This document shows positions 11,616 to 44,220 of a stretch of DNA of 64,000 nt, piece by piece (position 1 is the first letter of the stretch; each line of letters starts with the position of its first letter). Below the pieces are notes generated by a model that was given only the letters and a program-made list of their open reading frames with translations, searched no databases and was not told the DNA's origin. This stretch comes from an uncultured Pseudomonadota bacterium (GTDB lineage Bacteria > Babelota > Babeliae > Babelales > RVW-14), in contig CAYHBO010000004.1 of the NCBI GenBank assembly GCA_964354855.1, forward strand, positions 213 to 64,212. Reading direction: 5' to 3'. The position numbers and the translations under genes are program-made.

Positions 11616-11629
11616 AATAAGTACTCAGA

Positions 11630-26481: not shown

Positions 26482-26516
26482 AATAAAATTAACAAAAGAA
26501 TCCTGGGAGATTGGAA

Positions 26517-27296: not shown

Positions 27297-27888
27297 CGGT
27301 ATGAAAATAGTTTTATTATTCCTACTCACCCTTTCAATAGCTTCAACTACACATGGCATGTTACTTATACCTCAACGATTAACCGAACAAAGCTTTGTAA
27401 CCACCGCAGTACATAAGTTACTTATAGGCAATACATACTGCTACACCCCAGAACAAGCAATAAAAAATCAATGTGAATCATGCTTTGTTACATGGGTAGA
27501 TTGGCTCATCCATGGCCCACAAAAAAATCTCTTAAATACAACTAACCAAGATGGCTACACCCCTCTTCATCTGGCAATCATGAAAGGGCTTGATACTTAT
27601 GTGTCACATCTACTTTTACAGGGAGCTTGCATCTTGGCTCCGGTTGGACAAGAACAACATTATCATAAAGGCTACACGCCCCTTCAGTTAGCAATCGTCT
27701 ACGGAAAAAAAGAATGTATCAAAGTCTTACTTCAAGATTTGCATTTCCATAACGTTGATCTAAGAGGCACCTGGGATTTTGCAAAAAATTATGGGATTGA
27801 AGTACAAAAAATCTATGAGCAAGCTGACCAGGAAATTGGACGAAAAAGATTGACCCCAGTAATGGGGGTAGTTGTAAATAAAGAATAG
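27286..27888 (+). CDS. Secreted CxxC-ankyrin repeat protein, paralog 5
   Basis: Alternative start at 27301 (MKIVLLFLLTLSIASTTHG|M). CESCF. DGYTPLHLAIMKGLDTYVSHLLLQGACI; GYTPLQLAIVYGKKECIKVLL. Confidence 0.8.
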   Translation: MKSNGMKIVLLFLLTLSIASTTHGMLLIPQRLTEQSFVTTAVHKLLIGNTYCYTPEQAIKNQCESCFVTWVDWLIHGPQKNLLNTTNQDGYTPLHLAIMKGLDTYVSHLLLQGACILAPVGQEQHYHKGYTPLQLAIVYGKKECIKVLLQDLHFHNVDLRGTWDFAKNYGIEVQKIYEQADQEIGRKRLTPVMGVVVNKE

Positions 27889-27924
27889 AAAAAAATGTAA
27901 CATTTTAAGCTGGGGGGCGTAAAA

Positions 27925-28449
27925 ATGAAAAATATTTTATTACTTCTACTCGTCATGGCCATTATACCAACAATATGCTGTATGAAACCAATAACAGTTC
28001 CTGTTCCGTTACAAGGCAGAACCTGGTTTCAGCAAAAATCATACCAAGCAACGCATTGGGCTTTGCATCCTGATCAGTACTGCGCCTCTGCTCTCACAGC
28101 CATAAAGCGTAACTGTGGATCCTGTTTCGAGGCTTGGGTAAATGCTACTCCTGATATTGCTGAAGGAGAAAAAAACCAACTTGATGAACTAGATACTGAT
28201 GGCTACACACTTATCCACCGTGTAATTTTATTAAACTATTCCGATGGGGTAAGACTTCTTATTACAAAAAGAGCTAGTATCGAAACACTCGTAGGAAAAA
28301 CGAATCAACAGTTTTCTGGATACTCGCCACTAAGGCTAGCAAGAACACTAAAAAAACAAGAGTGTATCGACGTCTTACTTGAAAATGGCGCAAAAGATGA
28401 GTGCCCAGAAAAACAGAGAAAACAATTAGAACAGATGGAACAAGAATAA
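27925..28449 (+). CDS. Secreted CxxC-ankyrin repeat protein, paralog 6
   Basis: Signal peptide MKNILLLLLVMAIIPTICC|M. CGSCF. DGYTLIHRVILLNYSDGVRLLITKRASI; GYSPLRLARTLKKQECIDVLLENGA. Confidence 0.75.
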   Translation: MKNILLLLLVMAIIPTICCMKPITVPVPLQGRTWFQQKSYQATHWALHPDQYCASALTAIKRNCGSCFEAWVNATPDIAEGEKNQLDELDTDGYTLIHRVILLNYSDGVRLLITKRASIETLVGKTNQQFSGYSPLRLARTLKKQECIDVLLENGAKDECPEKQRKQLEQMEQE

Positions 28450-28460: not shown

Positions 28461-29381
28461 TTACTTCATTAAAACATAAGCACGAATCATTTCACGTAAC
28501 AATTCAGCAGAGTCTGATGGATGAAAAGATAATGGATTTTTTGACAGCCAGATTTCATGAGAGTATGACATAACAAGTCGATCTTCAAATCTATCCGCAT
28601 TAGCAAGAAGTTTAATGAAATTCTCTATAGTATTCTCATCTATAAAATCAAGAACGATCCCTGGACAAGAAAATTGTGGTTTTGAAATAAACAGTTCAAG
28701 TTGATTAAAAAAACAAGACCCACGAATCGTTTCTTCAAAAGACCTAAGACCCTTGGAGCTACGTGGAAATTCAATAGCAATATTTACACAATCACGCTTA
28801 GTCGATGCGCATAACGCATCAAGATATCTATGATAAGCTTGAGACGCTTCTTGAGAAGGAGCTTGCGATGCCTCACGAACTACAACCCCCTCACCATCAG
28901 GAAGATACCAAGACCCTGAAAATGCCATAAATCCATAATGAGTATCTTGAACATTATTTTTCTCATCAATAATTTTCATCGCTTCTACTACCCAGGCTGG
29001 AGATTGTCCTAATGAAAAAATATTATATAATTTATCTGGATATCGAACCTTAATAAAATTATTCGTTTTAATTGCCAAAGAAACCAATGTGCGCAAACCA
29101 GATGGCGTTAAGAGGGGATGTAATCTGTATTTACACGTTTCAGGATCATGCTTAGACGCAGTATAGTTAATTAGCTTACTTACTTTTATTCTCGGCCAAA
29201 ACCGTTTTATAACTTCCCATGCTTTGTGGTCATAAGCTTCAATTTCTTTAATTTTAAGCGTATCTCTAATCTCTTGGTCACTACTAACAGCTTCAACAGA
29301 AGGCTCTTGCATTCCTAAAGCATTATATTCCTGCATCAAAGAAAAAATAAAAAATAAATTTGTGAGTATCTTAAAATTCAT
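28461..29381 (-). CDS. Secreted hypothetical protein (306 aa)
   Basis: Long ORF with signal peptide MNFKILTNLFFIFSLMQEYNALG|MQEP. No recognisable domain. Confidence 0.55.
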   Translation of the reverse strand: MNFKILTNLFFIFSLMQEYNALGMQEPSVEAVSSDQEIRDTLKIKEIEAYDHKAWEVIKRFWPRIKVSKLINYTASKHDPETCKYRLHPLLTPSGLRTLVSLAIKTNNFIKVRYPDKLYNIFSLGQSPAWVVEAMKIIDEKNNVQDTHYGFMAFSGSWYLPDGEGVVVREASQAPSQEASQAYHRYLDALCASTKRDCVNIAIEFPRSSKGLRSFEETIRGSCFFNQLELFISKPQFSCPGIVLDFIDENTIENFIKLLANADRFEDRLVMSYSHEIWLSKNPLSFHPSDSAELLREMIRAYVLMK

Positions 29382-29410
29382 ATACGAACCTATTTTACCA
29401 AAGTTTATAA

Positions 29411-29884
29411 TTAATCATCACGAGAAGAGGGAACCTCTCCACCTTCAGCCTGCTCCAAAGCTAACCGCCGCTGTTTATTCAATCGATTATTTATAAAATT
29501 AATCCGCATAAACATTGGACACTCTTTTCTAGGAAAACGATTCTTAAGATCTTCATCAGAGAATTGACTAAGATCTTCGTTATTTCTTATGAGTTTGAAA
29601 CGCCTCAGTAATATAATTAAATCATTGCGATCAAGGGCATTAAATCGTTCTGCAGGAATTATACTTATTGGTGTAGTCGCAAAATCAATTGTGGAAACCC
29701 TTTCTTGCAGTTGTCGTTGTCTATGTGAGCGACGAAAACGTAATGGCATACCACTCGTCAATCGCAATGAAACCTCTCCATCAGGAGAGATTTCTTTAGG
29801 ACTTTCTTGCATAGCATATACTTCATTACTTCCCACAAGACCAAGAAGCCCTAGAACGAGCATATTACGTTTAATTATATTCAT
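29411..29884 (-). CDS. Secreted hypothetical protein, Arg-rich
   Basis: Preferred start at 29884 gives the signal peptide MNIIKRNMLVLGLLGLVGSNEVYA|MQESP. The track start at 29926 adds a second hydrophobic stretch with no RBS. No recognisable domain. Confidence 0.5.
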   Translation of the reverse strand: MNIIKRNMLVLGLLGLVGSNEVYAMQESPKEISPDGEVSLRLTSGMPLRFRRSHRQRQLQERVSTIDFATTPISIIPAERFNALDRNDLIILLRRFKLIRNNEDLSQFSDEDLKNRFPRKECPMFMRINFINNRLNKQRRLALEQAEGGEVPSSRDD

Positions 29885-30127
29885 AATAAAACCTACAATA
29901 ATAAATATGTTATACTTACTTAGCATAACAACAAAGTAATCCAGATTGCAATAATTAGTAATAACTTTTTATTATTTTTTTATTTTACGAAGTACTGTAT
30001 TTCAATAATTAAATAATTATGTAAATCACCATAAAAAAGCATCTATTCCAAATCCCTATGTTTCCGGTATAATACCGGTTCTTAGCCTTAAATGTATCTA
30101 TTTCTTGTTTTGTACCAAAGAGGGTGT

Positions 30128-31531
30128 ATGGCCACGTCACACGGACCGACTGCTATTGATCAGCAGGGTAATTTTTTTGACTTAGAAAATTTTGTTTATA
30201 AGTCTGAGCGCGGTTTGAATGAAGAAATCGTTCGTAACATCTCTGCTCAAAAAAGTGAACCTGCATGGATGCTAGCGTTACGCTTGCAAGCATTAACCGA
30301 GTTTACCAATCGACCGTTACCTAAATGGGGACCTGATCTTACCGCCCTCAACATCAATGACATCCACTACTACCTTAAACCAATCGCAAATCAAGGCCGC
30401 ACCTGGGATGATGTTCCAAAAGATATCAAAAACACCTTCGACCGTCTTGGCGTCCCTCAAGCTGAACGAGCCTACCTTGCCGGACTTGGTGCTCAGTACG
30501 AATCAGAGGTGGTATACCACAACTTAAAACAAGAATGGATCGATAAAGGCGTTGTCTTTCTAGATACCGATACCGGCCTTAAACAATACCCAGAAATCTT
30601 CCAAGAATATTTTGGCAGTGTTATCCCCTATGATGACAACAAATTTGCCGCCCTTAATACCGCTGTGTGGAGTGGTGGAAGTTTTATTTATATCCCTAAA
30701 GGCGTTGAAGTAACCATGCCATTACAGGCTTACTTTCGTATCAACGCTGAACGCATGGGACAATTTGAACGGACGCTTATCATCGCTGATGAAGGAGCTT
30801 TAGTAAACTATATTGAAGGCTGCACAGCTCCAACCTATGTCACCAGCTCATTGCACTCGGCTGTTGTAGAAATTATCGCAAAACCGGGCTCACGTGTACG
30901 GTACTACACCATACAGAACTGGTCTAAAAATGTTTATAACTTAGTTACCAAACGAGCATTTGCATACAAAGATTCCATCGTTGAATGGATCGACTGCAAC
31001 CTTGGCAGTGGCATCACCATGAAATATCCTGCAGTCATTCTTAAAGAAGAAGGCGCCAAAGCTGAAATCCTTTCCATTGCTATGGCCAGTGCTCCAAATC
31101 AAATTCAAGACTCAGGCGGAAAAGTAACCCATCTTGCATCAAATACCAGCTCACGCATTATTGCAAAATCGATCAGCAGTAAAGGTGGCCGTTCTAGCTA
31201 CCGTGGCATGGTAAAGGTTGTAAAAGGTGCAAAAAATTGTAAATCATTTGTTCAATGTGATGCTCTGTTACTCGATGAGTATTCACGCACCGACACTTAC
31301 CCATACATCGATATTAACGAATCAGAAGTAAACATCGGGCATGAAGCTTCAGTCAGTAAAATCGGCGAAGATCAGCTTTTTTATCTGACCAGTCGTGGCA
31401 TCAGTGAACTTGCAGCACGCAATTTGATCGTTAATGGTTTCATTGAACCGTTTGTAAAAACATTACCGATGGAATTCGCCGTAGAAATGAATCGTCTTAT
31501 TGAACTTGAAATGGAAGGAAGCGTTGGATGA
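30128..31531 (+). CDS. sufB: Fe-S cluster assembly scaffold protein SufB
   Basis: Start at 30128 after agaggg. Highly conserved SufB sequence (YESEVVYHNL, GSFIYIPKGV, IADEGALVNYIEGCTAP, HEASVSKIGEDQLFYLTSRGI). Confidence 0.93.
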   Translation: MATSHGPTAIDQQGNFFDLENFVYKSERGLNEEIVRNISAQKSEPAWMLALRLQALTEFTNRPLPKWGPDLTALNINDIHYYLKPIANQGRTWDDVPKDIKNTFDRLGVPQAERAYLAGLGAQYESEVVYHNLKQEWIDKGVVFLDTDTGLKQYPEIFQEYFGSVIPYDDNKFAALNTAVWSGGSFIYIPKGVEVTMPLQAYFRINAERMGQFERTLIIADEGALVNYIEGCTAPTYVTSSLHSAVVEIIAKPGSRVRYYTIQNWSKNVYNLVTKRAFAYKDSIVEWIDCNLGSGITMKYPAVILKEEGAKAEILSIAMASAPNQIQDSGGKVTHLASNTSSRIIAKSISSKGGRSSYRGMVKVVKGAKNCKSFVQCDALLLDEYSRTDTYPYIDINESEVNIGHEASVSKIGEDQLFYLTSRGISELAARNLIVNGFIEPFVKTLPMEFAVEMNRLIELEMEGSVG

Positions 31532-32265
31532 AGTGTGATTTCGTACTCGATAAAGCAACCACGGTCTCATCAGAGGTTTATTTAACCCAGCTTTTGGGTG
31601 ATTGCCATCTTGAACAAAAACCACATGAACAACTTTATCTACTCCTCACCATTAAAAAAGAAACAACCGTTAATGTCATTGATGATTTACATACCCATCT
31701 TTTTTTGAACACAAAAATCGAATTTCTCGTTGAGCAAGATGCACACTTAGCTTATGAAGTAAAAATGCTTGAAGGCGTTGATGTCATCTTTGGCAATAGC
31801 CAACCAACTTCCACTACAGACACAACCATCATAGCAAAAGAACTCATAGTTCGCCTGATGGGAACCAATGCTCATGCTAATCTTAAAGGCACCTGTTTCG
31901 GTCATGAAAAGAAAATTTTTAGATTTAAAACATTACAAGATCATAAAGCGCCGCATGCTACCAGTAACGTCATTATCAAAAGCGTTCTTGATGGAGAAGC
32001 CATCTTTTCGTGCCATAGCTTAATCAATGTTGCACAAGAGGCTCAAAGAACTTTTGCACAACAAGCCAATAAAAATATTTTATTGAGCGATCGAGCCAGA
32101 GCGGTTTCTATTCCTATGCTTGAAGTACTTGCAAATGATGTCACCTGTAAACACGGTGCCGCTATTAGCACCTTTGATGATGAACAAATGTTCTATCTTC
32201 AAAGCCGTGGGCTTCAACCTAAGGCGGCTAAGAAGATTTTAGTACAAGCGTTCTTGGAGTATTAG
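31528..32265 (+). CDS. sufD: SufD-like Fe-S assembly protein (short, 245 aa)
   Basis: 4-nt overlap with sufB. C-terminal SufD signature ANDVTCKHGAAISTFDDEQMFYLQSRGL. Confidence 0.75.
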   Translation: MKCDFVLDKATTVSSEVYLTQLLGDCHLEQKPHEQLYLLLTIKKETTVNVIDDLHTHLFLNTKIEFLVEQDAHLAYEVKMLEGVDVIFGNSQPTSTTDTTIIAKELIVRLMGTNAHANLKGTCFGHEKKIFRFKTLQDHKAPHATSNVIIKSVLDGEAIFSCHSLINVAQEAQRTFAQQANKNILLSDRARAVSIPMLEVLANDVTCKHGAAISTFDDEQMFYLQSRGLQPKAAKKILVQAFLEY

Positions 32266-32276
32266 ATCATAGCCAG

Positions 32277-32313
32277 ATCCTTCGAGACGCCCTCCGGGCT
32301 CCTCAGGACAAAC
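32277..32313. repeat. REP-like palindromic element (TTCGAGACG...CTCCTCA family), copy 2
   Basis: atccTTCGAGACGccctccgggCTCCTCAggacaaac, 12 nt after the sufD stop. Hairpin gagacgccc/gggctcctc. Confidence 0.6.
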
Positions 32314-32413
32314 AACGCCCTATCACCATCTCTTGACGGTCTGACAACCCATTATTATGATGATCATCAGCATACATTCTGTTTGTTGGTTTTAATGATA
32401 AAAAGGAAAAGAG

Positions 32414-33406
32414 ATGAAAAAATTATACACACTAATAACCTATGTAATCACGCTTCTGCTAGGAAGTTCTTGCTGTGCACTATCACTTAAAAGTACACAG
32501 GGATACAAAACTGATTCCCCACTATTTGCCAATGGTGACAGCATCTGTGGTTTTGTAAGCCTCAAAAAAGGATTTCAAGCAACAGGCGGCGACACCATCA
32601 CATTCGATACCGATGGCACCCTATCCGGCCCAGTAAAAGTTCACGGCGACGGTCCACTCACCATCTCTCTTGCAGGAGACTTACACCTTGGTTCAGGATT
32701 TAATCTACAAACCCCTCTTATTCTTCGTGGACACAAAACAGCTCTCGTACTTGGCGCAGCGTTACATTTACCAGCCAGCTATCCGTTAAATATTGACGGA
32801 GAAACAACCATTAATGGAATGGGTCATGAACTCTCTTCTGAAAAAGCAATTAAGATTAATGACCAAGCAAAGCTCACCCTACGCAACCTCACACTATCAA
32901 GCACCAATGATCATCTTTTTGATATGGAACCGACCGCACAAGGCGTTGAACTTAATACTGTTGTGCTTAATGTAAACGGCGTCCAAAGTTTAGTTAACGA
33001 TTTTGGAAATATCGTTATTCACAATAAAGTGACTATTCAAGGCTCGTCAGACGCTAAAATAATTTTACCTGCAAATGCAACGCTCACCATTATGCCTCAT
33101 GCTACCCTATGCATTGAAGGAGTAATATTATCATGCGAAAATACCTCCTCAGAAAATCAAATTCGTTTCATTGATGAAACATCAACCATTAATTTGAATC
33201 AAAGCTCATTTGAACTTCTTGGTAATGCCATTTTTACTAAAGGAAGAATTACCTGCAACAACGAAGTAATTTTAAATGTCACAGCAGAAAGAAGTCTCAT
33301 CTTTGGCGATGGAGAAAATAAAAAAAATAACTTTAATTTAATGTTGCTCGGCGGGACATCAGTCAAACTTGATGGCAGCGGCATCATTATTGATCGTTCA
33401 GTATAA
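32414..33406 (+). CDS. Secreted hypothetical protein, beta-helix-like repeats; first gene of the glycosylation island
   Basis: Signal peptide MKKLYTLITYVITLLLGSSCCA. Recurrent short beta-strand motifs (LTLRNLTLSS, VVLNVNG, VTIQGSS, LTIMPHATLCIEG). No catalytic motif recognised. Confidence 0.5.
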   Translation: MKKLYTLITYVITLLLGSSCCALSLKSTQGYKTDSPLFANGDSICGFVSLKKGFQATGGDTITFDTDGTLSGPVKVHGDGPLTISLAGDLHLGSGFNLQTPLILRGHKTALVLGAALHLPASYPLNIDGETTINGMGHELSSEKAIKINDQAKLTLRNLTLSSTNDHLFDMEPTAQGVELNTVVLNVNGVQSLVNDFGNIVIHNKVTIQGSSDAKIILPANATLTIMPHATLCIEGVILSCENTSSENQIRFIDETSTINLNQSSFELLGNAIFTKGRITCNNEVILNVTAERSLIFGDGENKKNNFNLMLLGGTSVKLDGSGIIIDRSV

Positions 33407-33431
33407 TTACTCAGGCAATAAAGGACTAATC

Positions 33432-34643
33432 ATGATCTTTTTAAAATACTATCGCATAGCAAGCGTAGCTTTCTTATTTTTTTTCCCCAACATAAACACA
33501 TTACCAATCACTGACAACAACCCCCCATCGATTCTGCATCTACACTTTAAATGTCCCGATCCAGGTGGCATTGAATCTCATTTAATTGGCCTCAATAAAA
33601 TTTTCAATGAAAAAGGCATCAAAAATATTGTTCTTACCAGTAAATATTCCACCTTTTTGATTGATGCACTCAACCAGCCAGCACAAGAAAATGGCAAGTC
33701 TTGCCGAACTTTTGATCATCCTTTATTCGATCCAATTAACACTGACATACAAGCAATCTATGAAAAAGATAATGTTGCCGTTATCGTCAGTAATTGGCCC
33801 GGAGGATTAAATTCAAGCGTCAATTTTGCAGAACACTTTCCCGTTAAACTTGTCTATATGCATCATAATTTTGTTCATGATTTTGATGATACTGAAATAG
33901 AGAACCTCAATAAAACAAATGGCATTCTTGCGGTATCTCCAATAGCTGCGGCTTATTTTAAAGAATTATCTAATTCCGAAAAAATCCAAGTCAAAAATAT
34001 AGAACATATGGCGCCATTTTGGGATGAAGACAAATATCTCACCTATCAACTAAAGTATACAAAAAAGGAATTTTTCAAGAACACATTCAATCTTGATATC
34101 ACTGATGATTATCCAATCATTTGTTCAGTTGCCAACCTCTACTGGTATAAAAATCATCAGGTGCTTATCAAAGCGTTAGGCTTATTACACCATAAAGATC
34201 AAACCAAATTTCATCTTATCCTTGCAGGTGATGGCCCAGAAAGAAAAAAACTTGAACAACTCACTGCAAGTCTAAAATTAACAAACTACGTTCATTTCAT
34301 TGGAAAAACATTAGAAGTCCCAGAACTTCTTTACCATGCAGACCTTCATGTATTGCCAAGCTCTCACGAAAGTTTTGGGCTTGTACATCTTGAAGCGGCA
34401 ACCATGAAAAAACCTTTCGTTGGCGCTACAAAAACCGGCGCAGAAGGATTTATTCAACAGGGCATCACCGGATTTATTTTTGAAAATAACAATGCACAAG
34501 ATCTCGCAGAAAAATTAAAGATATTACTTAATGACTCAACATTACGAAAAACCATGGGAGAAAAAGCGTTTACCTATGTACGTCAGCATTATGCAAATAA
34601 AGTTATCTTTGATAAGTGGGTAGACTTTTTAGGAAAAATTTAG
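33432..34643 (+). CDS. GT4-like (group 1) glycosyltransferase with N-terminal signal/anchor, paralog 1
   Basis: SD aaggac before ATG 33432. MIFLKYYRIASVAFLFFFPN. GT-B C-terminal signature LPSSHESFGLVHLEAATMKKPFVGATKTGAEGFIQQGITGFIF. Confidence 0.8.
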   Translation: MIFLKYYRIASVAFLFFFPNINTLPITDNNPPSILHLHFKCPDPGGIESHLIGLNKIFNEKGIKNIVLTSKYSTFLIDALNQPAQENGKSCRTFDHPLFDPINTDIQAIYEKDNVAVIVSNWPGGLNSSVNFAEHFPVKLVYMHHNFVHDFDDTEIENLNKTNGILAVSPIAAAYFKELSNSEKIQVKNIEHMAPFWDEDKYLTYQLKYTKKEFFKNTFNLDITDDYPIICSVANLYWYKNHQVLIKALGLLHHKDQTKFHLILAGDGPERKKLEQLTASLKLTNYVHFIGKTLEVPELLYHADLHVLPSSHESFGLVHLEAATMKKPFVGATKTGAEGFIQQGITGFIFENNNAQDLAEKLKILLNDSTLRKTMGEKAFTYVRQHYANKVIFDKWVDFLGKI

Positions 34644-36701
34644 ATGAGAACAAGTAAGATTGTTTTTTTGCTAAGCATTTTTTTTGTGGTTCACGCCTAC
34701 GCTGAAGGACCAAAGTTCCTTAACCTTCACTATCGATTTCCATCACAAGGAGGTCTCGAATCACACCTCCTTATGTTTAATAAAGTTTTTGAACAACATC
34801 AGGTCTCGAACACTCTTCTGACCAGTCAACATTCAACATGGTTAGTAAAAAATATTAATCTTCCACCAAGCCATTATGGCCCCACCTGTCGCACATACCA
34901 TCATGAGGGACTCAATCCAAGCATTTTTGATATCATTAACACCTGTAAAGATCTACACCCATCAACCATCATATGCAACTGGATGGATCAGTTACCAAAT
35001 TGCATTAAGGCAGCTAAAAATCATTCCGCCCATACTATCTACATGCACCACACTCCCAAAGATAGTTTTACGGCTGATGAAATCATGCAGCTTAATCAAA
35101 CTAACGGCATTATTACGGTCTCTCCAACACTTGCCATGCATCTTAAAAAATTACAAGAAACAGGAGTGATAACGGTAAAACACTTAGAACACATAGCACC
35201 ATTTTGGGATGAAGACCAATTTTTAGGGTTCAAGCCAACACGCTCAAAAAAAGATTTTTTTATCAACCAGTTACAATTGAATATTCCCGATGACTCCCCT
35301 GTCATCTGTTCAGTAGCTAACTTGTACTGGTATAAAAATCATAAACTTCTTTTACATGCTATTGATCAACTTATTCACAAGAGACAAAAGAAATTTCATG
35401 TCATTCTTGCCGGTGATGGATCACGTAAAAATGAGCTTATAACGCTAACACGAGAGCTTAACTTAACCGACTATGTCCATTTTGTTGGCAAGATACACGA
35501 GGTTCCAGAACTTCTGTATCATGCAGATTTTCATGTATTACCAAGTTCTAATGAGCCTTTTGGACTTACCCACCTTGAAGCCGCAACCATGAAAAAACCT
35601 TTTGTCGGCGCAACAGAAACAGGAGCTGCAGAATTTATCCAACATGGAGTCACCGGATTTATTTTTGAAAACAACAATGCCCAAGATCTTGCTGATACCT
35701 TAGAAAAACTCCTTGATAATCCAGCACTTTGTAAAATCATGGGAGAAAATGCCTATACCTTTGTTCACCAAAACTACTCAAACGAAGCTCTCTTTAAGAA
35801 ATGGATGATATTTTTAAAGCAGATGGAAGCGGCTGATGCATCAATCACACAGCAAATAACTCCTCAACCAGAGAATATTGATCATATTACCATAGCAATT
35901 CTCGCTAAAGATATGGCTCACGTACTCCCTTTATACCTCAGCTGCATTGAACAACAAACCTGGCCTAAAAATAAAACGTATCTTTATATTCGCACAAACA
36001 ATAACAAAGATAATACAATAGACCTGTTAAAAGCATGGATGAATCAAGTTGGGAGCCAGTATGCTGGTATTTATTTTGACGATACCGATACAAAAGAACG
36101 TGTAGAGAAATATGGCATCCATCAATGGAACTCAGAGCGATTTAGAGTTCTAGGCAAAATTCGCCAAGACTCCGTAACTTGGGCCCATGAGCACAAATCT
36201 CATTATTTTGTTGCCGACTGTGATAATTTTATTAGACCGGATACTATTGAGGTTCTCATGAATACTAACCTCCCAGTTATTGGACCATTACTGCGAAGAA
36301 ACGACAGTAATGAAAATTATGATTGCTTTGAACATGGACCGTCAACGTTTCATGTTCTTCCTCCAAGTGCTCCACAGTACTGGAGACCGGACAATCCATT
36401 ACATACCATACTCGTAAAACAAGAAATGAGAGGATTGATAAAAGTCCCGATCATACACTGCACCTACCTGATAAGACATGAATACCTCGATCAAGTCAGC
36501 TATGACGACAACACTGGCCGTTGGGAATTTGCTATCTTCAGCGACACCTTAAATAAACAAGGAATCCCTCAGTATGTTGATACCCGTGAAGTGTATGGTT
36601 ATCTTACCAGAGCTGAAAACGGAACTGAACTTGTAAATTGGCTTACAGAACTAAAGAGTGGCCCATGGCTGAAGAAAACATTGGCAAGGATTACTCTTTA
36701 A
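34644..36701 (+). CDS. Bifunctional fusion: GT4-like domain + C-terminal GT-A domain resembling the N-terminal domain of collagen galactosyltransferase (COLGALT)
   Basis: Signal MRTSKIVFLLSIFFVVHAYA. Residues 1-~395 are paralogous to the neighbouring GT4 genes. Residues ~400-685 carry ITIAILAKDMAHVLPLYL...DNT...HYFVADCDNFIRPDT...VPIIHCTYLI. Confidence 0.75.
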   Translation: MRTSKIVFLLSIFFVVHAYAEGPKFLNLHYRFPSQGGLESHLLMFNKVFEQHQVSNTLLTSQHSTWLVKNINLPPSHYGPTCRTYHHEGLNPSIFDIINTCKDLHPSTIICNWMDQLPNCIKAAKNHSAHTIYMHHTPKDSFTADEIMQLNQTNGIITVSPTLAMHLKKLQETGVITVKHLEHIAPFWDEDQFLGFKPTRSKKDFFINQLQLNIPDDSPVICSVANLYWYKNHKLLLHAIDQLIHKRQKKFHVILAGDGSRKNELITLTRELNLTDYVHFVGKIHEVPELLYHADFHVLPSSNEPFGLTHLEAATMKKPFVGATETGAAEFIQHGVTGFIFENNNAQDLADTLEKLLDNPALCKIMGENAYTFVHQNYSNEALFKKWMIFLKQMEAADASITQQITPQPENIDHITIAILAKDMAHVLPLYLSCIEQQTWPKNKTYLYIRTNNNKDNTIDLLKAWMNQVGSQYAGIYFDDTDTKERVEKYGIHQWNSERFRVLGKIRQDSVTWAHEHKSHYFVADCDNFIRPDTIEVLMNTNLPVIGPLLRRNDSNENYDCFEHGPSTFHVLPPSAPQYWRPDNPLHTILVKQEMRGLIKVPIIHCTYLIRHEYLDQVSYDDNTGRWEFAIFSDTLNKQGIPQYVDTREVYGYLTRAENGTELVNWLTELKSGPWLKKTLARITL

Positions 36702-36862
36702 TTTTCCCATCAAAAACCCTTTATCTTTCAAGTAATCATATTCAATTTGAAAACATTGTTGATATTTATCTTAAATAATAGGTAAGATCAACCCTGATGG
36801 TAATTATAACTAATAATTACAAACTATTTATTTGATAAATAAGCGGTAAGAAAAAGAGTGCT

Positions 36863-38113
36863 GTGATGCAAAAGCTCCACTTCGTTTCGCTCCTAACCAT
36901 GAGCGCCTTCCTTACTATCACCTTGACAACAGACCCTTTAACACTAATACCACTTGATATAAATCCCACCATTCTCCAGCAGAATAAAAAGCAGGCTCTT
37001 CTAAATATCCATTACAATGTTCCCTCTCCTGGCGGCATAGAAACACATTTATTGATTTTTAATAAGCTTTTTGCCCAACAGGCCATCCCTCATACATTAC
37101 TTACCAGTAAACACTCTACGTGGATTGTTAATACCATAAATCAACCAGCAAATCCTTATGGCCTACATTGCCATCTATACAATCATGATGAAGTAAATCC
37201 AACATCAACCGATATCCTTAACACATGCAAAGAAAAACAAATATCCACCATAATCTGTAACTGGGAAGGCCCCCTATTAGATGCAAGCCTTGATGCTGCC
37301 AAAACTCACCCAACAAAACTTATCTTTGTACATCATAATTTTAAAGAAGATTTTACCGATCAAAACATTGAAAAATTCAACCAGCTTAGCGCCATTGTGG
37401 CGGTTTCCCCAGTTGTAACCGAGTCTTTACATCGATTACAAAAATCGGGACGCTTACAAGTAAAAAATATAATGCACATCTCACCTTTTTGGGATGAAGA
37501 CAAATTTTTAACGTTCAAACCAACACGATCAAAACAAGATTTCTTTAAACAAAAATTCAATCTCACCTTCACCGATAATGATCCCGTAATCTGTTCTGTA
37601 GCAAATTTATATTGGTGCAAAAATCAACAATTACTCTTACATGCCGCTGCAAACCTACTCCATACCAAAAATAAAAAGTTTCACCTCATTCTAGCGGGGG
37701 AAGGCGACGATCTCCCGAAGCTAGAACAATTAGCAAGAGAGCTAAACATAACATCCTGTACTCACTTTGTTGGAAGAACCTTAGAAGTCCCTGAACTTCT
37801 GCATCATATAGATTTACACGTACTACCAAGCTCTCACGAAGGGTTTGGGCTCGTACAACTTGAAGCAGCTATGATGAAGAAACCATTTTTAGCCGCAACA
37901 AAAACAGCCGCTGAAAGAATTATTCAACATGGTATTACCGGATTTATTTTTGAAAATAACAACGCCCAAGACTTGGCAAATAAATTGGAAACATTAATCG
38001 ATAATCCAAAACTGCGTCAAACCATGGGACAGAATGCATACAATTTTGTACGCCAACATTATGCAAACAAAATTCTCTTTAACAAATGGATAGATTTATT
38101 GGAGAAAATTTAA
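36863..38113 (+). CDS. GT4-like glycosyltransferase with N-terminal signal/anchor, paralog 3
   Basis: GTG 36863 / ATG 36866. LPSSHEGFGLVQLEAAMMKKPFLAATKTAAERIIQHGITGFIF. Shares FWDEDKFL and ICSVANLYW with its neighbours. Confidence 0.8.
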   Translation: MMQKLHFVSLLTMSAFLTITLTTDPLTLIPLDINPTILQQNKKQALLNIHYNVPSPGGIETHLLIFNKLFAQQAIPHTLLTSKHSTWIVNTINQPANPYGLHCHLYNHDEVNPTSTDILNTCKEKQISTIICNWEGPLLDASLDAAKTHPTKLIFVHHNFKEDFTDQNIEKFNQLSAIVAVSPVVTESLHRLQKSGRLQVKNIMHISPFWDEDKFLTFKPTRSKQDFFKQKFNLTFTDNDPVICSVANLYWCKNQQLLLHAAANLLHTKNKKFHLILAGEGDDLPKLEQLARELNITSCTHFVGRTLEVPELLHHIDLHVLPSSHEGFGLVQLEAAMMKKPFLAATKTAAERIIQHGITGFIFENNNAQDLANKLETLIDNPKLRQTMGQNAYNFVRQHYANKILFNKWIDLLEKI

Positions 38114-39315
38114 TGAAAATTATCATAAGCGTAATCATATTACTCTATCCGCTCACAATAACAGCAACCGTACAACCATTAAAATCCCAAAATATTTTAA
38201 ACCTTCATTACCGATTTCCTCATCCAGGCGGCATAGAAACACATGTACTTATGGCTAATAAAGTTTTTGCTCAACGCAACACACCTCACACACTCCTCAC
38301 AAGTAAACATTCTGAATGGATAGTAAACCGTATTAACCAACCAAAATCACCTTATGGCCCACCATGCTATCTTTTAGGACATGATGAATTTTTTCCAACC
38401 CCTACAGATGTTCTACAAGCCTGCCAACAAAAACAAATCTCCACCATCATTTGTAATTGGATTGGACACTTAGATCAAGGAATCGAATCTACTAAAACTC
38501 ATCCTGCAGATTTAATTTATATGCATCACGTACCGGTAGATATTTTTAGCCCCATTGAACTTCAAAAAATTAATCAAGCAAAAGGCATCGTTGCCGTTTC
38601 ACCGATCATGACTAATCAATTTAAAACACTCCAAAAAATGGGCATCATTACCATCAAGCATATTGAACATATCGGCCCATTCTGGGATGAAGATAAATTT
38701 TTACAATGCAAACCAACTCGATCACGACAAGAATTTTTTAAACAGGCATTCAACCTTGATATCCCCACCGACCTCCCACTCGTCTGCTCCGTTGCAAATT
38801 TTGCCTGGTATAAAAACCATCCATTACTCTTAAAAGCGGTAAGTATTCTTATCAATCAAAAACAGAAAAAATTTCACCTCATCCTTGCCGGCGAGGGGGT
38901 GGAAAAGAAAAATTTAGAAGCACTAATCAATGAACTTAATATTGCACCCTATGTCCATTTGCTTGGGAAAACACAAGAAGTTCCTGAGCTTCTTCACCAT
39001 GTAGATATCCATGTACTTGCAAGTTCTAATGAGCCTTTCGGGCTAACCCATGTTGAAGCAGCTACTATGAAAAAACCTTTTATTGCAGCAACAGGAACCG
39101 GAGCTTCCACATTTATCAACCATGGCATTACCGGTTTTATTTTTGAGAACAACAATGCGCAAGACCTTGCCAATAAACTTGAAATTGTTATTGATAACAA
39201 AGTATTTCGTGAAAGAATGGGACAAGACGCTTTTACGTTTGTTCGCAATAATTACTCAAATCAAGTTCTTTTTAACAAATGGATGAACTTCTTGAAGAAA
39301 ATAGAGGGGCACTAA
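38113..39315 (+). CDS. GT4-like glycosyltransferase with N-terminal signal/anchor, paralog 4
   Basis: TAATG overlap with the previous gene, after ggagaaaa. MKIIISVIILLYPLTITA. LASSNEPFGLTHVEAATMKKPFIAATGTGASTFINHGITGFIF. Confidence 0.8.
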   Translation: MKIIISVIILLYPLTITATVQPLKSQNILNLHYRFPHPGGIETHVLMANKVFAQRNTPHTLLTSKHSEWIVNRINQPKSPYGPPCYLLGHDEFFPTPTDVLQACQQKQISTIICNWIGHLDQGIESTKTHPADLIYMHHVPVDIFSPIELQKINQAKGIVAVSPIMTNQFKTLQKMGIITIKHIEHIGPFWDEDKFLQCKPTRSRQEFFKQAFNLDIPTDLPLVCSVANFAWYKNHPLLLKAVSILINQKQKKFHLILAGEGVEKKNLEALINELNIAPYVHLLGKTQEVPELLHHVDIHVLASSNEPFGLTHVEAATMKKPFIAATGTGASTFINHGITGFIFENNNAQDLANKLEIVIDNKVFRERMGQDAFTFVRNNYSNQVLFNKWMNFLKKIEGH

Positions 39316-41918
39316 GCCCCCGCGACCCACGCCTCAATCTTAACCTTAAAATCTCCCGGAACGCTCACGCCACCGCCTTGAATAACCGGAGGGTTGCCGC
39401 CACCTTTAAGATCAAACGTTGTCTTAAGCCAAGCCGCAAATGCTTTAACATCAACTCCTGAACCTGTATGAGCATATGCCAAGAAGCTGAAACGATCAGA
39501 TTGCTTGCCAACCATCACATAAAAACCTGGTTTATGTTGTGCAAGTGATTCCGCAACTTGTTTCAATTCTTCATTAGAAACATCATCAAGTTCTAGATAC
39601 AAGAAGTTTGTTTTGCCAACCGCTTTTACTTGTTGTTGCCACTGTGGAATTTGCGTAAGCATGATTTGCTTCTTGAGTTGTTTGATCGTCGTTGTCGCTT
39701 GCATCAATTGCTCATGTTGCTTCTCTACCGCATCAGCAACTTGTTCAACTTTAACTTTGAACTGTTCACTAAGCTGCTTAGCGCCACTAAATGTTTGTTG
39801 AAATAACTCAAGTGATTTAGGCCCAGTCAGAGCAACAATACGTCGCACCCCAGTAGCCAAAGAGCTTTCACTGATAATTTTAAAGCTTCCAATAATTCCA
39901 GTACGCGAAGCATGAGTGCCTCCACAAAGCTCGATTGAATAATCAGCAATAACAATCATACGTACCGTCTCAGGATTGTATTTATCCCCAAACGGCATTA
40001 GGGCACCTACGCGTTGCGCTTCTTTCATCGTCGTGTTTACTACTTCAACAGGAATATTTTCTTGAATTTTTTCATTCACTAAATCTTCAACACGCTTTAT
40101 TTCTTCTTTAGTCATTGCATGATGATGCGAAAAGTCAAAGCGCAGATAATCAGGATGCACTACCGAACCGGCCTGTTTAACATGCGAGCCAAGCGCTTGA
40201 ATCAAGGCTGATTGCAACATATGCGTTGCAGTATGATTTTTAACGGTACATGGGCGAATTTTAGCATCCACAATACTTTCAACAGCATCACCAACGTTAA
40301 TATCCTGAGCAGGTTTCCCATCAAGTGCCGTTAACGGGATCTTAATCATAATCGCTGGCTTAAATGTTTCACCTGCTTTTTTAAGGCCAATAACGGGGAA
40401 CGTTTGATTATTAATCGTCACCGTCCCACTATCATCAACTTGCCCACCAGTTTCAACAAAGAACGGTGATGCTTCTGTTGAGATCCAGATACAATCTTCA
40501 CGTTTTTCAACAAACTGAATGTTACTGCTATTTTTCAGTTCATCATAGCCAACAAATTTAGTTGTCATCCCATCGATCGCAAATTCCTGCCCTTGCTGAT
40601 CTTTCATTTTTTTACCTGAAAGCTGTTGTTGTTTTTTCATTTCTACTTCAAACCCAGCTCTATCAATCGTCATATTGCCTTCATTCGCCACAATTTCAGT
40701 AAGTTCTGGCGGGAACCCATAGGTATCATACAGTTTAAAAACTTGAGGCCCGGTCAACACATCCGTACAATTTGTTTTGTGTTCTTCCATGTACTTTGCA
40801 AGAATATTTTGGCCACCAATCAAGTTTTGGGCAAAACGATCAACTTCGTTATCAAGTACCGCAATAATCAATTTTTCAGACTTTTTAAGCTCTGGAAAAA
40901 CGCTCTGCATCGTATCAATAAAAATTTGAGCAAGTTTAGAAAACAAGCGAGCATCGGTAGAAATTTTCTCTGAGAAGAGCGCTGCACGACGAATAATTTT
41001 TCTTAAGACATAGCCGCGACCATCATTTGCCGGCGAGCAACCATCAGCAATTAACAAGGCACTTGATCTGATATGGTCAGCTAACACGCGAAAAGCAGCT
41101 TGAAGGTCAGCATTACTTTTCTCATAAGAAATATCGGTTATTTTTTCGATGGAATTAATAACCATCATCAACGGATCAGATTCGAACACATTGGTTTTAC
41201 CCTGCATCACCATACATAAGCGCTCAAGCCCCATTCCTGTATCCACACCGGTCTGAGTTAAAAGTTCTAGAGTTCCATCCGCCTGACGATTGTATTGCAT
41301 AAACACGTTGTTCCAAATTTCAAGGTAGCGTGCACAACTACACCCAGGGGCACAACTTGCTTGCTTACAACCGATCGTAGGACCGCGGTCAACATAAATT
41401 TCAGTACATGGACCACATGGACCGGTATCACCCATCGCCCAAAAATTATCCGCTTCACCAAGACGAATGATACGCTCAGTTGGTAATCCGATAACATTAT
41501 GCCAAAGATCATATGACTCTTGATCCTCTTTATACACCGATGCGTACATTTTATCCGCAGGCAGACCCATATCTTCGATTAAAAATTTCCATGCAAATTC
41601 GATTGCCTCTTTTTTGAAATAATTCCCAAAAGAAAAGTTGCCAAGCATTTCAAAAAACGTCAGATGACGTTCAGTAAACCCTACTTGATCAAGGTCATTA
41701 TGCTTACCACCAGCACGAACACACTTTTGACTCGTTGTCGCACGAACATAACTTCTCTTTTCTTTTCCCAAAAAACAGTCTTTGAATTGATTCATCCCGG
41801 CATTGGTAAACAATAAAGTTGGATCTTGAGCAGGAATAAGCGATGAGCTGGCAAGCACGGTGTGGCCATTTTTTTCAAAATAACTCAGAAACTTTTGACG
41901 AATTTCAAATGAATTCAT
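39312..41918 (-). CDS. alaS: Alanine--tRNA ligase
   Basis: Full-length 868 aa. FTNAGMNQFK, class II core, editing-domain HTATHML and CGGTH, C-terminal DHHA1-like region. The 3' end overlaps the convergent GT4 gene by 4 nt. Confidence 0.95.
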   Translation of the reverse strand: MNSFEIRQKFLSYFEKNGHTVLASSSLIPAQDPTLLFTNAGMNQFKDCFLGKEKRSYVRATTSQKCVRAGGKHNDLDQVGFTERHLTFFEMLGNFSFGNYFKKEAIEFAWKFLIEDMGLPADKMYASVYKEDQESYDLWHNVIGLPTERIIRLGEADNFWAMGDTGPCGPCTEIYVDRGPTIGCKQASCAPGCSCARYLEIWNNVFMQYNRQADGTLELLTQTGVDTGMGLERLCMVMQGKTNVFESDPLMMVINSIEKITDISYEKSNADLQAAFRVLADHIRSSALLIADGCSPANDGRGYVLRKIIRRAALFSEKISTDARLFSKLAQIFIDTMQSVFPELKKSEKLIIAVLDNEVDRFAQNLIGGQNILAKYMEEHKTNCTDVLTGPQVFKLYDTYGFPPELTEIVANEGNMTIDRAGFEVEMKKQQQLSGKKMKDQQGQEFAIDGMTTKFVGYDELKNSSNIQFVEKREDCIWISTEASPFFVETGGQVDDSGTVTINNQTFPVIGLKKAGETFKPAIMIKIPLTALDGKPAQDINVGDAVESIVDAKIRPCTVKNHTATHMLQSALIQALGSHVKQAGSVVHPDYLRFDFSHHHAMTKEEIKRVEDLVNEKIQENIPVEVVNTTMKEAQRVGALMPFGDKYNPETVRMIVIADYSIELCGGTHASRTGIIGSFKIISESSLATGVRRIVALTGPKSLELFQQTFSGAKQLSEQFKVKVEQVADAVEKQHEQLMQATTTIKQLKKQIMLTQIPQWQQQVKAVGKTNFLYLELDDVSNEELKQVAESLAQHKPGFYVMVGKQSDRFSFLAYAHTGSGVDVKAFAAWLKTTFDLKGGGNPPVIQGGGVSVPGDFKVKIEAWVAGA

Positions 41919-42075
41919 ATGTTACAACCTTTGACAAATAAAACAAAAATATTCAAAAATAGAAGACCTGTACAAAACTACCACAGCTCTTTGATTTCGC
42001 AAAACATTACAGACCCCTAGGACAATTAGACAAGAAAAACGGTTTAAAAGAAACAGAGAGCACTAATGAAAAATA

Positions 42076-42201
42076 ATGAAAAATGTAGAAATACTAATCC
42101 TTGGGGGAATATACTTTCATAATGTATCAGCAGCACAAACAAAAATTGCCTTTATTGCCGCTATTTACGGGAACTATATTGTGTCTACAGTATTGGTATA
42201 A
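42076..42201 (+). pseudogene. 5' remnant (42 codons) of a paralog of the DUF616-like gene at 43234
   Basis: MKNVEILILGGIYFHNVSAAQTKIAFIAAIYGNY... versus MKKLKILILGSILFHGTSAAQPRIAFFTAIYGKY.... The upstream gcactaatgaaaaa is also shared. The frame ends at 42201. Confidence 0.7.
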
Positions 42202-42336
42202 GTAAATTTTAAAGTTTACAACACAAAAACAAGGGGAATGTCCATGTAAATAATTTTGGCTAAGATACATAATCATGGAAGTTCAAGATGTATATGGATT
42301 TCTATTTTAGTTAACAATTATGGGAAAGTATGTTTT

Positions 42337-43128
42337 ATGATCAAATTAAGGCTTAATAAAAGTTTTTTATTTCTATTATCTATTCTGCTTTGCTCAATAC
42401 AACTCAGTACAGCGCATAATGCAACAATTGAAAATCTATACATTGATAATATAAAAAAATGTCTTCTTGATACCATTCATCGTGAAAGGCTTGATGAAAA
42501 TGACCACACAAATTGGGTTACACCAAATTCCGCTACAATGATTGGTGAAACTGGCCTCAATAAAATACAATTTCTGGTTGAAGATATTTTAAAAAATAAT
42601 ATTCCAGGAGATTTAATTGAAACCGGTGTTTGGCGCGGCGGAGCTACCATTTTTATGAGAGCAATTCTAAAAGCTTATCAAATAACTAATCGTAATGTTT
42701 GGGTCGCTGATTCATTCGAAGGATTACCCAAACCAAATGATATTTTATATCCTTCTGATAAAGAAGACTCTCATCATAAAATAGAATATTTAAAAGTTTC
42801 ACTTGATACCGTAAAATCAAATTTTAAAAAATATGGTTTACTTGATGATCAAGTTAAATTTTTAAAAGGATGGTTTAAAGATACTCTTCCTTCTGCTCCA
42901 ATTAAACAATTATCGTTATTAAGACTTGATGGTGATATGTATGAATCTACTATGGATGCATTAAAAAACTTATATCATAAGCTTTCCATTGGTGGTTATA
43001 TTATTATAGACGATTGGACCTTACCTGGAGCTAAAATAGCAGTCCTTGATTTTAGACAAGAAAACAATATTACAGATGAGATATGTGATATAAATAAATG
43101 GACAATGTACTGGCAAAAAACTAAATAA
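42337..43128 (+). CDS. TylF/macrocin-O-methyltransferase-family SAM-dependent methyltransferase with signal/anchor
   Basis: MIKLRLNKSFLFLLSILLCSIQLSTA. GDLIETGVWRGGATIFMRA, VWVADSFEGLP, LRLDGDMYESTMDAL, GGYIIIDDW. Confidence 0.85.
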   Translation: MIKLRLNKSFLFLLSILLCSIQLSTAHNATIENLYIDNIKKCLLDTIHRERLDENDHTNWVTPNSATMIGETGLNKIQFLVEDILKNNIPGDLIETGVWRGGATIFMRAILKAYQITNRNVWVADSFEGLPKPNDILYPSDKEDSHHKIEYLKVSLDTVKSNFKKYGLLDDQVKFLKGWFKDTLPSAPIKQLSLLRLDGDMYESTMDALKNLYHKLSIGGYIIIDDWTLPGAKIAVLDFRQENNITDEICDINKWTMYWQKTK

Positions 43129-43233
43129 CGTGAGTTCGATAAATTAACCAAGCTAGAAAATAAAGTCCGCTCTCAGGGCTTCCGCATTAAAAAATAAGTA
43201 AGCTTTTCCAAAAAAAAATAACTGGGGGCACTA

Positions 43234-44103
43234 ATGAAAAAGTTAAAGATACTAATTCTTGGGAGCATACTATTTCACGGTACATCAGCAGCACAACCAA
43301 GAATTGCTTTTTTTACTGCTATTTACGGAAAGTATGAAGATTCTTGTAAGCCTTTTGCAAAACAAACAATTCCTACTGACTTTATTTGTTTTACCAACCT
43401 TGATCGTTTAGCTGCCAATGAATGGATAATTGATAAAACTCCTTACCATGAAACTAATCCAAGCCCTCTTGATCATGGACGCTATATTAATTCAATCAAA
43501 AATAATATACACACTTTTAATATTGCAAAATATTACAAGCAAAATTTTACCAATATTCCTCGACTAAAAGACTATGAGGTACTTGTTTGGTTAGACGGCA
43601 CCATTGAAATTACTAATCCAAAAGTAGCTGAATGGATTCTTGAAAAGATAAAACAACATCCGATTATCGGTTGGGAGCATTGGCGTAACGGAAAACTTGC
43701 AGAAGAAGTTAAAGCTTCCGACTTTCACCGATACACATCAACCTTTTGGTTTGGACAACCTCAACCCTATCAAGATATTTATGCACAATATGATGCATAC
43801 ATCAAAGATGGATTCAATGACAAAGATTATTGGTCCTCAATTGATAAAAACAAACCTCAATTAGGACTTTGGGTAACATGTTTTGTTGCATTTGATAATA
43901 AGAATACAACGATTACCAAGAATTTTTTAGATTTATGGTACCAACAAACATTACAGTATACAACCCAAGATCAGATTGGGTTTCCGTATGTTGTACAAAA
44001 ACTAAACATGATCCCTTATACTTTGCCAGATAGTGAGATTATAGGAACGAGTGATCGTAATAATTTTTATATTAAACATGACCATGGAAAAGGATTATTA
44101 TAG
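43234..44103 (+). CDS. DUF616 / TOD1-MUCI70-like putative glycosyltransferase with signal/anchor
   Basis: MKKLKILILGSILFHGTSAA. IAFFTAIYGKYE...DFICFTN...KYYK...YEVLVWLDGTIEI matches my recollection of DUF616-family motifs. Confidence 0.55.
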   Translation: MKKLKILILGSILFHGTSAAQPRIAFFTAIYGKYEDSCKPFAKQTIPTDFICFTNLDRLAANEWIIDKTPYHETNPSPLDHGRYINSIKNNIHTFNIAKYYKQNFTNIPRLKDYEVLVWLDGTIEITNPKVAEWILEKIKQHPIIGWEHWRNGKLAEEVKASDFHRYTSTFWFGQPQPYQDIYAQYDAYIKDGFNDKDYWSSIDKNKPQLGLWVTCFVAFDNKNTTITKNFLDLWYQQTLQYTTQDQIGFPYVVQKLNMIPYTLPDSEIIGTSDRNNFYIKHDHGKGLL

Positions 44104-44220
44104 GGCGTAAGATTGTTTGTAAAGAAGTATTTTTATCTTGACGAAGAAGTTCACTATCCCATAAGCTCACTCTTATACAATCTAAAACATATAATGAATT
44201 TTTTTGGAGAAGGAAGATTA

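Follow-up and report, generated by a model that had tools for sequence, protein, structure and literature searches.

A GT4 glycosyltransferase fused to a homologue of the COLGALT1 GT1 domain, and a bacterial and viral family genomically linked to collagen-like proteins

Results

Domain structure of the fused gene

The 64,000-nucleotide stretch of contig CAYHBO010000004.1 analysed here (the window) carries at 34644..36701, on the + strand and with the stop codon included, a gene that appears in the open reading frame (ORF) list with a product of 685 amino acids (aa). In this product, a glycosyltransferase (GT) of family GT4 is fused to a GT-A domain related to the N-terminal GT1 domain of the collagen galactosyltransferase COLGALT1 (GLT25D1). 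The alanyl-tRNA synthetase (AlaRS) of the window has a Babeliales/Dependentiae placement, and its best named matches are 62% identical. The original prediction for this locus, made from the sequence, had described the ORF as two enzymes in one; the ORF is present, and it contains both a Pfam GT4 domain and the COLGALT1-like GT-A domain.

The N-terminal segment, MRTSKIVFLLSIFFVVHAYA followed by EGP (34644..34703, +), resembles a signal peptide when read directly from the sequence; by eye, it has basic residues, a hydrophobic core, and an A-x-A site. Behind it lies a GT4 domain of the GT-B fold and the retaining type (aa ~23–393, 34710..35822, +), assigned from PF00534, PF13692, and the identity to its paralogues. 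Residues 211–372 match Glycos_transf_1 (PF00534) with an E of 5.2e-40 and 137.2 bits against a cut-off of 26.4, and Glyco_trans_1_4 (PF13692) matches the GT4 half with an E of 1.8e-31. The match of the N-terminal GT-B lobe to PF13439 is weak (E 0.16). A motif search located the EX7E motif, the mark of retaining GT4 enzymes, as EPFGLTHLE (aa 304–312, E304-x7-E312; 35553..35579, +), and this motif is conserved in all four GT4 paralogues of the locus. The frame stays open through the inter-domain linker, MEAADASITQQITPQPENIDH (aa 394–414, 35823..35885, +), after which comes the GT-A domain (aa 415–671, 35886..36656, +), recognised by phmmer, profile, and Foldseek searches as homologous to the COLGALT1 GT1 domain and to the accessory (AC) domain of the lysyl hydroxylase LH3. 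Within it, the DxD motif D525-C-D527 (36216..36224, +) aligns with D166-A-D168 of COLGALT1, and the loop at aa 551–587 (36294..36404, +) is remodelled, as seen in the family alignment and in a sister orthologue. No match to the GT25 family (PF01755) was obtained for the ORF, whose last domain is the GT1-like one.

Three GT4 ORFs flank the fused gene on the + strand. The upstream paralogue (33369..34643) runs with its stop codon directly up to the ATG of the fused gene; as called independently, it has 403 aa and starts at 33432. The first downstream paralogue (36863..38113) was assigned by Pfam and by its identity to the fused gene, and the second (38086..39315) overlaps at its end the convergent alaS gene (39312–41918, minus strand). 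The GT4 half is 50–55% identical to these three ORFs, which bears out the proposal that residues 1–~395 are their paralogue. All four of the motif strings quoted as common to the paralogues were found, but the first, as written, is absent from the paralogue at 33369.

Conservation of the fusion in an independent assembly and a sister species

The independent Logan assembly of run ERR3856787 (locus L001) is 100% identical to the window over 29312–44736 (15.4 kb). In this assembly the gene was called as one product of 671 aa starting from a GTG at codon 15, and this later start is the reason why the exact 685-aa product is missing from the protein collection. Neither a stop nor a frameshift occurs at the junction between the halves (nucleotides ~35823–35885), where the original prediction had asked for a check; the identical assembly agrees.

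A sister Babeliales species from a different sample (locus L082), whose AlaRS is 82% identical to that of the window, displays the gene order of the window: SufB, SufD, a 331-aa protein, GT4, a 697-aa fusion of GT4 and PF13704, GT4, and alaS. The 685-aa and 697-aa fused proteins are syntenic orthologues and are 56% identical from end to end; their linkers are similar in length but different in sequence. Because the independent assembly is identical and the same architecture is found in a different species and sample, we conclude that the fusion is a genuine, conserved gene and not an artefact. The alternative of an assembly fault, or of a stop erased by a sequencing error, was also considered and is effectively ruled out by the identical assembly, the L082 orthologue, and the alternative frames, which are filled with stops.

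A secreted protein of 330 aa without a Pfam match is encoded directly upstream of the GT4 operon (32414–33406, +). It occupies the same position in the sister species (L082, 18750–19745) and could be either a substrate or part of the operon itself.

Homology of the C-terminal domain

Residues 401–685 were used as the query for a phmmer search of the PDB sequences. Residues ~409–655 aligned with human COLGALT1 with an E of 7.2e-23, over its N-terminal domain only (chain residues 21–265), and the COLGALT1 chains were the only significant matches, the next having an E of 0.28. The original prediction had matched residues ~400–685 to this domain, and the human strings that it gave are those found in the alignment. 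A profile of a 25-sequence family alignment matched COLGALT1 GT1 with an E of 1.4e-39. The same profile also matched the AC domain of LH3 (residues 363–508, E 2.3e-12) and the C-terminal part of mimivirus R699 (E 2.5e-7), and it gave no match in the PDB beyond these three proteins.

The structural comparison gave the same ranking. When an AlphaFold2 model of the GT-A domain (pLDDT 81.7, pTM 0.85) was submitted to Foldseek, the top match was COLGALT1 (9evj; E 8.4e-21, TM 0.73, 27% identity), followed by LH3 (E 3e-14) and R699 (E 2e-9), with generic GT2 enzymes at 1e-8 or weaker. The outcome that would have spoken against the predicted homology, namely a return of generic GT2 hits only, was thus not observed. 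Among the viral structures of BFVD, there were only distant matches (E 2e-12 or weaker, 12–17% identity), and NCBIfam gave no match to the domain. COLGALT1 comes out on top in the PDB sequence search, in the family profile search, and in Foldseek, with generic GT-A enzymes trailing well behind. These rankings identify the C-terminal domain as a specific homologue of the COLGALT GT1 and lysyl hydroxylase AC domains and not a generic GT2 match. The fused protein itself falls outside the COLGALT family, because its polypeptide lacks a GT25 domain and neither a collagen nor a hydroxylase partner is in view.

A large bacterial and viral family

The C-terminal domain is no isolated animal-type piece; more than 700 relatives of it were found at E ≤1e-3 among 90%-identity clusters. 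Most of them are free-standing proteins of ~280 aa, and the window domain is 50–57% identical to more than 100 stand-alone proteins. The only annotation of the family is Pfam PF13704 (Glyco_tranf_2_4) or a weak Anp1. In species-representative genomes, the family occurs in Parachlamydiales, Rhabdochlamydia, Protochlamydia, Babeliales/TM6, metagenome-assembled genomes (MAGs) of small-genome Pseudomonadota, Paenibacillus, Bacillus, Neobacillus, Sporomusa, and others, and IMG/VR contains 191 relatives on giant-virus MAGs and phage-like contigs. The Firmicutes copies begin at the catalytic domain, and the Chlamydiae and Dependentiae copies have a hydrophobic leader at the N-terminus. BLAST relatives of the COLGALT1 N-terminal domain have been reported only in animals and giant viruses (PMC12003778). 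Nothing on a bacterial homologue, or on a link of the family to collagen-like proteins, was found in the searched literature, and the prokaryotic and viral family has apparently not been described before.

The domain is mobile with respect to its partners. Among the 150 best 50%-identity representatives, 125 carriers have it at any position in proteins of 160–1880 aa, together with methyltransferases, GT2, tetratricopeptide repeats (TPR), sulfotransferases, and occasionally GT25. The small family members with a C-terminal extension have no TPR. Fusion to the GT4 subfamily of the window occurs in one 50%-identity cluster among these 150 representatives, which is the window's own; this rarity rests on the representative search, which contains the 671-aa form. 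A word-indexed protein database queried with C-terminal and junction-spanning sequences returned stand-alone proteins only, but the window's own fused protein and its orthologue were not returned either, so this search is uninformative on fusions.

Six representatives have a full GT25 domain behind the GT1-like domain, and in a seventh (P0272) a short GT25 fragment precedes it. The six proteins that unite a COLGALT-GT1-like domain with a Pfam GT25 domain in one polypeptide are P0230, P0195, P0245, P0204, P0252, and P0184. P0230 (676 aa, locus L084 1927–3957) is collinear with COLGALT1 residues 23–439 over both domains (E 2.3e-38), and its contig is gene-dense and of bacterial type. P0245 combines the GT1-like domain, GT4, and GT25 on one protein.

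Donor-site residues and a rebuilt loop

The COLGALT1 residues L59, R61, D91, W135, R139, V143, R147, D166, and D168, whose roles in holding UDP-Gal and the metal have been described (PMC12003778), correspond in the phmmer alignment to L420, K422, N452, W495, R499, L503, R507, D525, and D527 of the window protein. The D525-C-D527 motif is invariant in the 25-sequence family alignment. All 53 invariant columns of this alignment are kept in the window copy, as are 91 of the 108 columns with a conservation of at least 90%. Additional acidic residues that are invariant in the family lie in SYDD (aa 619–622) and at E628; the human sequence reads YPP at the SYDD position. One near-invariant residue is altered in the window copy (E494Q). 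The GT1 domain of human COLGALT1 is non-catalytic, holding Ca2+ and UDP-Gal for stability, and is without a base near the anomeric carbon (PMC12003778; PMC11897130). As a free-standing protein so strongly conserved across phyla is most simply an enzyme, we infer that the C-terminal domain of the window protein is probably active.

The segment YSNYHAAIDxNGYY is conserved throughout the family and also in COLGALT1 and the LH3 AC domain. In the window gene and its L082 orthologue, it is replaced by a longer and different loop (RRNDSNENYDCFEHGPSTFHVLPPSAPQYW...). Six of the 17 lost conserved columns fall in this remodelled stretch (aa 551–587), which has low pLDDT values in the model. Because the loop most conserved in the family has been rebuilt in the fused subfamily, the acceptor of this subfamily probably differs from that of the family. 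A compensated frameshift was examined as a source of the loop and rejected, since the other frames are full of stops and the L082 orthologue has the same loop.

Association with collagen-like genes

The family is genomically linked to bacterial collagen-like proteins. A collagen-like ORF lies within 10 kb of the family gene in 26 of 80 bacterial loci of stand-alone relatives; the nearest one is no more than 3 kb away in 23 loci and no more than 1 kb away in 11. With all 42 collagen-like genes counted, the density is 6.8 per 100 kb within 1 kb and declines with distance to ~1.7 per 100 kb at 8–9 kb. Within 3 kb, 24 such genes were observed, compared to 8.2 expected from the density at 5–10 kb (Poisson p 6e-6). 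The linked loci belong to Chlamydiae, Babeliales, Proteobacteria, and Firmicutes (e.g., L005, L002 93–10703, L044, L052, L049, and L041). In five loci, the collagen-like gene is ≤300 bp from the family gene and on the same strand. In L005 (9902–12950), for example, the family gene (9902–10771) is followed by a gene for a 654-aa Pfam-Collagen protein (10986–12950, E 3e-54) and then by one for a multi-domain GT2 protein.

The repeats of the collagen-like neighbours are rich in Gly-X-Thr. Among the neighbours of the family, collagen-like genes form the most frequent class; other recurrent neighbours encode nucleoside diphosphate (NDP)-sugar dehydratases (19 loci) and nucleotidyltransferases (14 loci). 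On viral contigs, a collagen-like gene of the tail-fibre type lies 2–9 kb from the family gene in 22 of 80 loci, being upstream and on the same strand in 19, with many of these contigs interrelated.

GT25 genes and the surrounding glycan island

Seven GT25 paralogues (PF01755) lie on the + strand at 53026–53958, 55033–55950, 55972–56928, 56947–57882, 57901–58848, 58876–59808, and 59823–60758. They form a tandem array with a TylF-like methyltransferase gene (54016–55017) between the first two. The presence of seven free-standing GT25 genes 16 kb downstream had been predicted, and all seven exceed the Pfam gathering cut-off of 24, with scores of 59.3, 28.2, 29.4, 45.1, 59.7, 28.8, and 38.3 bits, respectively. 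The paralogues are 49–77% identical to one another, and M-E-D-D is invariant in all of them. The sole PDB match of their profile is the GT2 domain of COLGALT1 (E 1.1e-5, 28 bits), with the aligned blocks GIDFIYMINL...AVNG and G.IG..LSH...W.MEDDI, which include the E-D-D metal motif. A single copy matches COLGALT1 with an E of ~1, and the identity to the GT25 domains of the fused bacterial proteins is 21–44%, over short stretches only. The array is separated from the fused gene by the convergent alaS and stands among ~20 other glycosyltransferases; in L082, the GT25 genes are also on the other side of alaS. Narrow hidden Markov models (HMMs) built from the GT25 and GT4 paralogues of the window found no GT25 and almost no GT4 beside the family in the 80 bacterial loci, which is a weak negative.

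The GT4 and GT25 genes belong to an island of ~24 genes (33369–62490), comprising four GT4, two TylF-like, one TOD1/MUCI70-like, five GT92, two GT11, three GH130/BMT-like, and seven GT25 genes. To judge from the sequence, every product of the island has a signal-peptide-like N-terminus, a topology that is unusual for nucleotide-sugar-dependent bacterial enzymes. No flippase, polymerase, or initiating phosphoglycosyl transferase is present among the ORFs scanned. A DegT aminotransferase is encoded in the window.

A second fusion lies at the end of the island (60733–62490, −), joining a GT92 domain (aa 59–225) to a GT11 fucosyltransferase-like domain (aa 385–579). Free-standing paralogues of its GT92 half are found at 44113–49560 and of its GT11 half at 47594–48499. 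The GT92 paralogue at 44113–45447 (+) exceeds its siblings by ~120 aa; the additional length consists of an internal low-complexity repeat (…NADYKELY…KNIDA…), which also yields a 147-aa antisense ORF at 44761–45204. Just beyond the island, a 452-aa protein without a Pfam match (62542–63900, −) resembles by eye the product of L005 7679–9133, which is encoded two genes upstream of the family gene and collagen-like pair. The two proteins share the stretches …WSRYLLVVDT…PGINFFT…, and the 452-aa protein may be an outer-membrane protein. Elsewhere in the window, five consecutive small ankyrin-repeat proteins are encoded at 24322–28449 (+), and a sixth (24870–25691) overlaps the first by 31 nucleotides. 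Ankyrin clusters are typical of host-associated Dependentiae, and ankyrin genes also flank the family in L013 and L082. Three large ORFs at 9550–11571, 12400–14391, and 14477–20473 (673, 663, and 1998 aa, respectively) have no Pfam match.

Discussion

The closest relative of the C-terminal domain with a known structure is COLGALT1 GT1 (GalT-N; PDB 9EVJ, 8ZGC, and 9U7H). The two share the GT-A fold and ~27% identity over ~245 collinear residues, and the DxD motif and most contacts to UDP-Gal and the metal are conserved. They differ in context, as the human domain is N-terminal to GT25 and non-catalytic, whereas the window domain is C-terminal to GT4. They differ also in detail: the YSNFW...GYY loop common to the human and bacterial proteins is replaced in the window gene, and SYDD and E628 are extra in the window domain. 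The AC domain of LH3 (PLOD3) and mimivirus R699, which resemble the domain in both the profile and the Foldseek searches, bind no cofactor and reside within hydroxylase/glucosyltransferase enzymes, whereas the window gene has no hydroxylase domain. Within the PF13704/weak-Anp1 family, of which the domain is a member, it stands apart by its variant loop and by the GT4 fusion seen in one cluster. A precedent is offered by SgtA of Clostridioides difficile, a GT-A enzyme encoded beside the gene for BclA3, an O-glycosylated collagen-like exosporium protein, in which O-GlcNAc is attached to Thr of the Gly-X-Thr repeats (PMC7157674). The gene arrangement observed for the family agrees with this precedent. 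Compared by description, SgtA consists of a WcaA-like GT-A domain and TPR, and it differs from the window gene, which has no adjacent collagen-like gene.

We consider it somewhat better than an even chance, with a probability of about 0.55, that the fused gene encodes an exported bifunctional glycosyltransferase in which a GT4 domain is joined to an active GT-A domain related to COLGALT GT1. The Babeliales (Dependentiae/TM6) enzyme would be exported by Sec, as its N-terminus suggests. Its GT-A domain would depend on a metal and a UDP-sugar, and would belong to the family that was also the source of the non-catalytic COLGALT GT1 and lysyl hydroxylase AC domains. Both domains would be active, adding two successive sugars onto one growing glycan, in one pathway with ~23 other signal-peptide-bearing glycosyltransferases and methyltransferases, including those of the four-gene GT4 operon. 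The acceptor may be an exported surface or host-facing glycoconjugate. Given the linkage of the wider family with Gly-X-Thr collagen-like proteins, we favour a repetitive secreted protein as the acceptor class. The rebuilt loop may now recognise a different acceptor, plausibly the sugar added by the protein's own GT4 half.

Several points weigh against this proposal. Nucleotide sugars would have to be available to an exported enzyme outside the cytoplasm, an unusual situation in bacteria. Among the ORFs scanned in the 64-kb window, there is no Gly-X-Y ORF and no 2-oxoglutarate/Fe(II) (2OG-Fe(II)) or lysyl hydroxylase domain, and L001 has no collagen-like gene; the Gly-X-Y scan covered the window and L001, and the hydroxylase search covered the window. 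The counts that link the family to collagen-like genes are phylogenetically non-independent and have no genome-wide control. The loop most conserved from bacteria to human is the one replaced in the fused subfamily. Finally, the animal homologues are non-catalytic, so homology alone does not imply activity (PMC12003778; PMC11897130).

The strongest alternative, which we regard as unlikely, is that the C-terminal domain is non-catalytic, like its counterparts in COLGALT1 and LH3, and either holds a UDP-sugar and metal for stability only or serves to dock partners or the acceptor, with the GT4 half as the sole catalyst. Both structural papers reached the non-catalytic conclusion for the human domain (PMC12003778; PMC11897130), and the remodelled loop of the fused subfamily and the E494Q change are in line with it. 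A free-standing pseudo-enzyme maintained across phyla is improbable, however, and the family is mostly stand-alone at ~280 aa, retains its DxD motif, and is extremely conserved. The window copy itself keeps the great majority of the conserved columns (91 of 108), along with SYDD and E628, which are absent in the human domain.

A little less probable again is that the fusion and the island assemble a lipid-linked or cell-envelope polysaccharide, resembling lipopolysaccharide (LPS), capsule, or an S-layer glycan, in place of a glycoprotein, with the likeness to a collagen enzyme reflecting shared ancestry only. Going by the NCBIfam and Pfam names, LPS and capsule synthesis are the classic settings of GT4 and GT25, and the TylF methyltransferases and the DegT aminotransferase of the window, as well as the NDP-sugar dehydratases and nucleotidyltransferases among the neighbours of the family in Firmicutes, are consistent with such a role. 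The signal-peptide-like N-terminus on every enzyme of the island does not fit the topology of assembly at the cytoplasmic face, and the scanned ORFs include none of the flippase, polymerase, and initiating transferase functions. In addition, the commonest neighbours of the family are collagen-like genes.

The original prediction had further proposed that both halves of the animal hydroxylysine-galactosyltransferase are present but re-wired. Both modules are indeed in the window, but their joint work is not supported, as there is no collagen-like gene, no hydroxylase, and nothing that ties the GT25 genes to the fusion. It therefore seems very improbable to us that the C-terminal domain pairs non-covalently with one or more of the seven GT25 proteins to restore a COLGALT-like enzyme, which would add galactose to hydroxylysine, or to some other residue, in a collagen-like substrate. 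The GT25 profile does find COLGALT1 GT2 as its only PDB match, with a common E-D-D motif; bacterial fusions of GT1-like and GT25 domains do exist, with P0230 collinear with COLGALT1; and the sister species keeps GT25 genes near alaS, in a family that is linked to collagen-like genes. Against these stand the 16 kb and the housekeeping gene between the GT25 genes and the fusion, their position among many glycosyltransferases, the weak match of a single GT25 to COLGALT1 and its limited identity to the GT25 domains of the fused proteins, and the lack of GT25 beside the family in the 80 bacterial loci searched with the narrow HMMs. The Gly-X-Thr repeats of the neighbours, moreover, point to O-glycosylation of Thr and not of hydroxylysine. 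The chance that the fusion results from mis-assembly or a lost stop is negligible, given the identity over 15.4 kb to an independent assembly, the orthologue in another sample and species, and the stops in the other frames.

The exported bifunctional glycosyltransferase thus remains our preferred reading of the window gene. More tentatively, the bacterial and viral family may be the active counterpart, and possibly the source, of the COLGALT GT1 and lysyl hydroxylase AC domains, dedicated to the glycosylation of collagen-like (Gly-X-Thr) proteins. The animal machinery for collagen glycosylation would then have come from a microbial toolkit that glycosylates collagen-like proteins, with the GT1-like and GT25 fusion already present in some bacteria (P0230), and the window gene would be a lineage-specific re-use of the module fused to GT4.

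Two structural studies of COLGALT1 in 2025 left its N-terminal domain as a puzzling module that is inactive and holds a cofactor. The window gene leads to a very large and conserved prokaryotic and viral sister family of this domain, which retains the donor-binding residues, is mostly free-standing and repeatedly found beside collagen-like genes, and is now and then fused to GT25 in the order of the animal enzyme. The exported island of ~24 enzymes raises the question of where intracellular Dependentiae would find nucleotide sugars outside the cytoplasm. If the family glycosylates collagen-like proteins, it would offer a tractable model of the former role of the animal domain, candidate enzymes for the still little-understood glycosylation of collagen-like fibres in bacteria and phages, and an evolutionary route to the animal enzyme.

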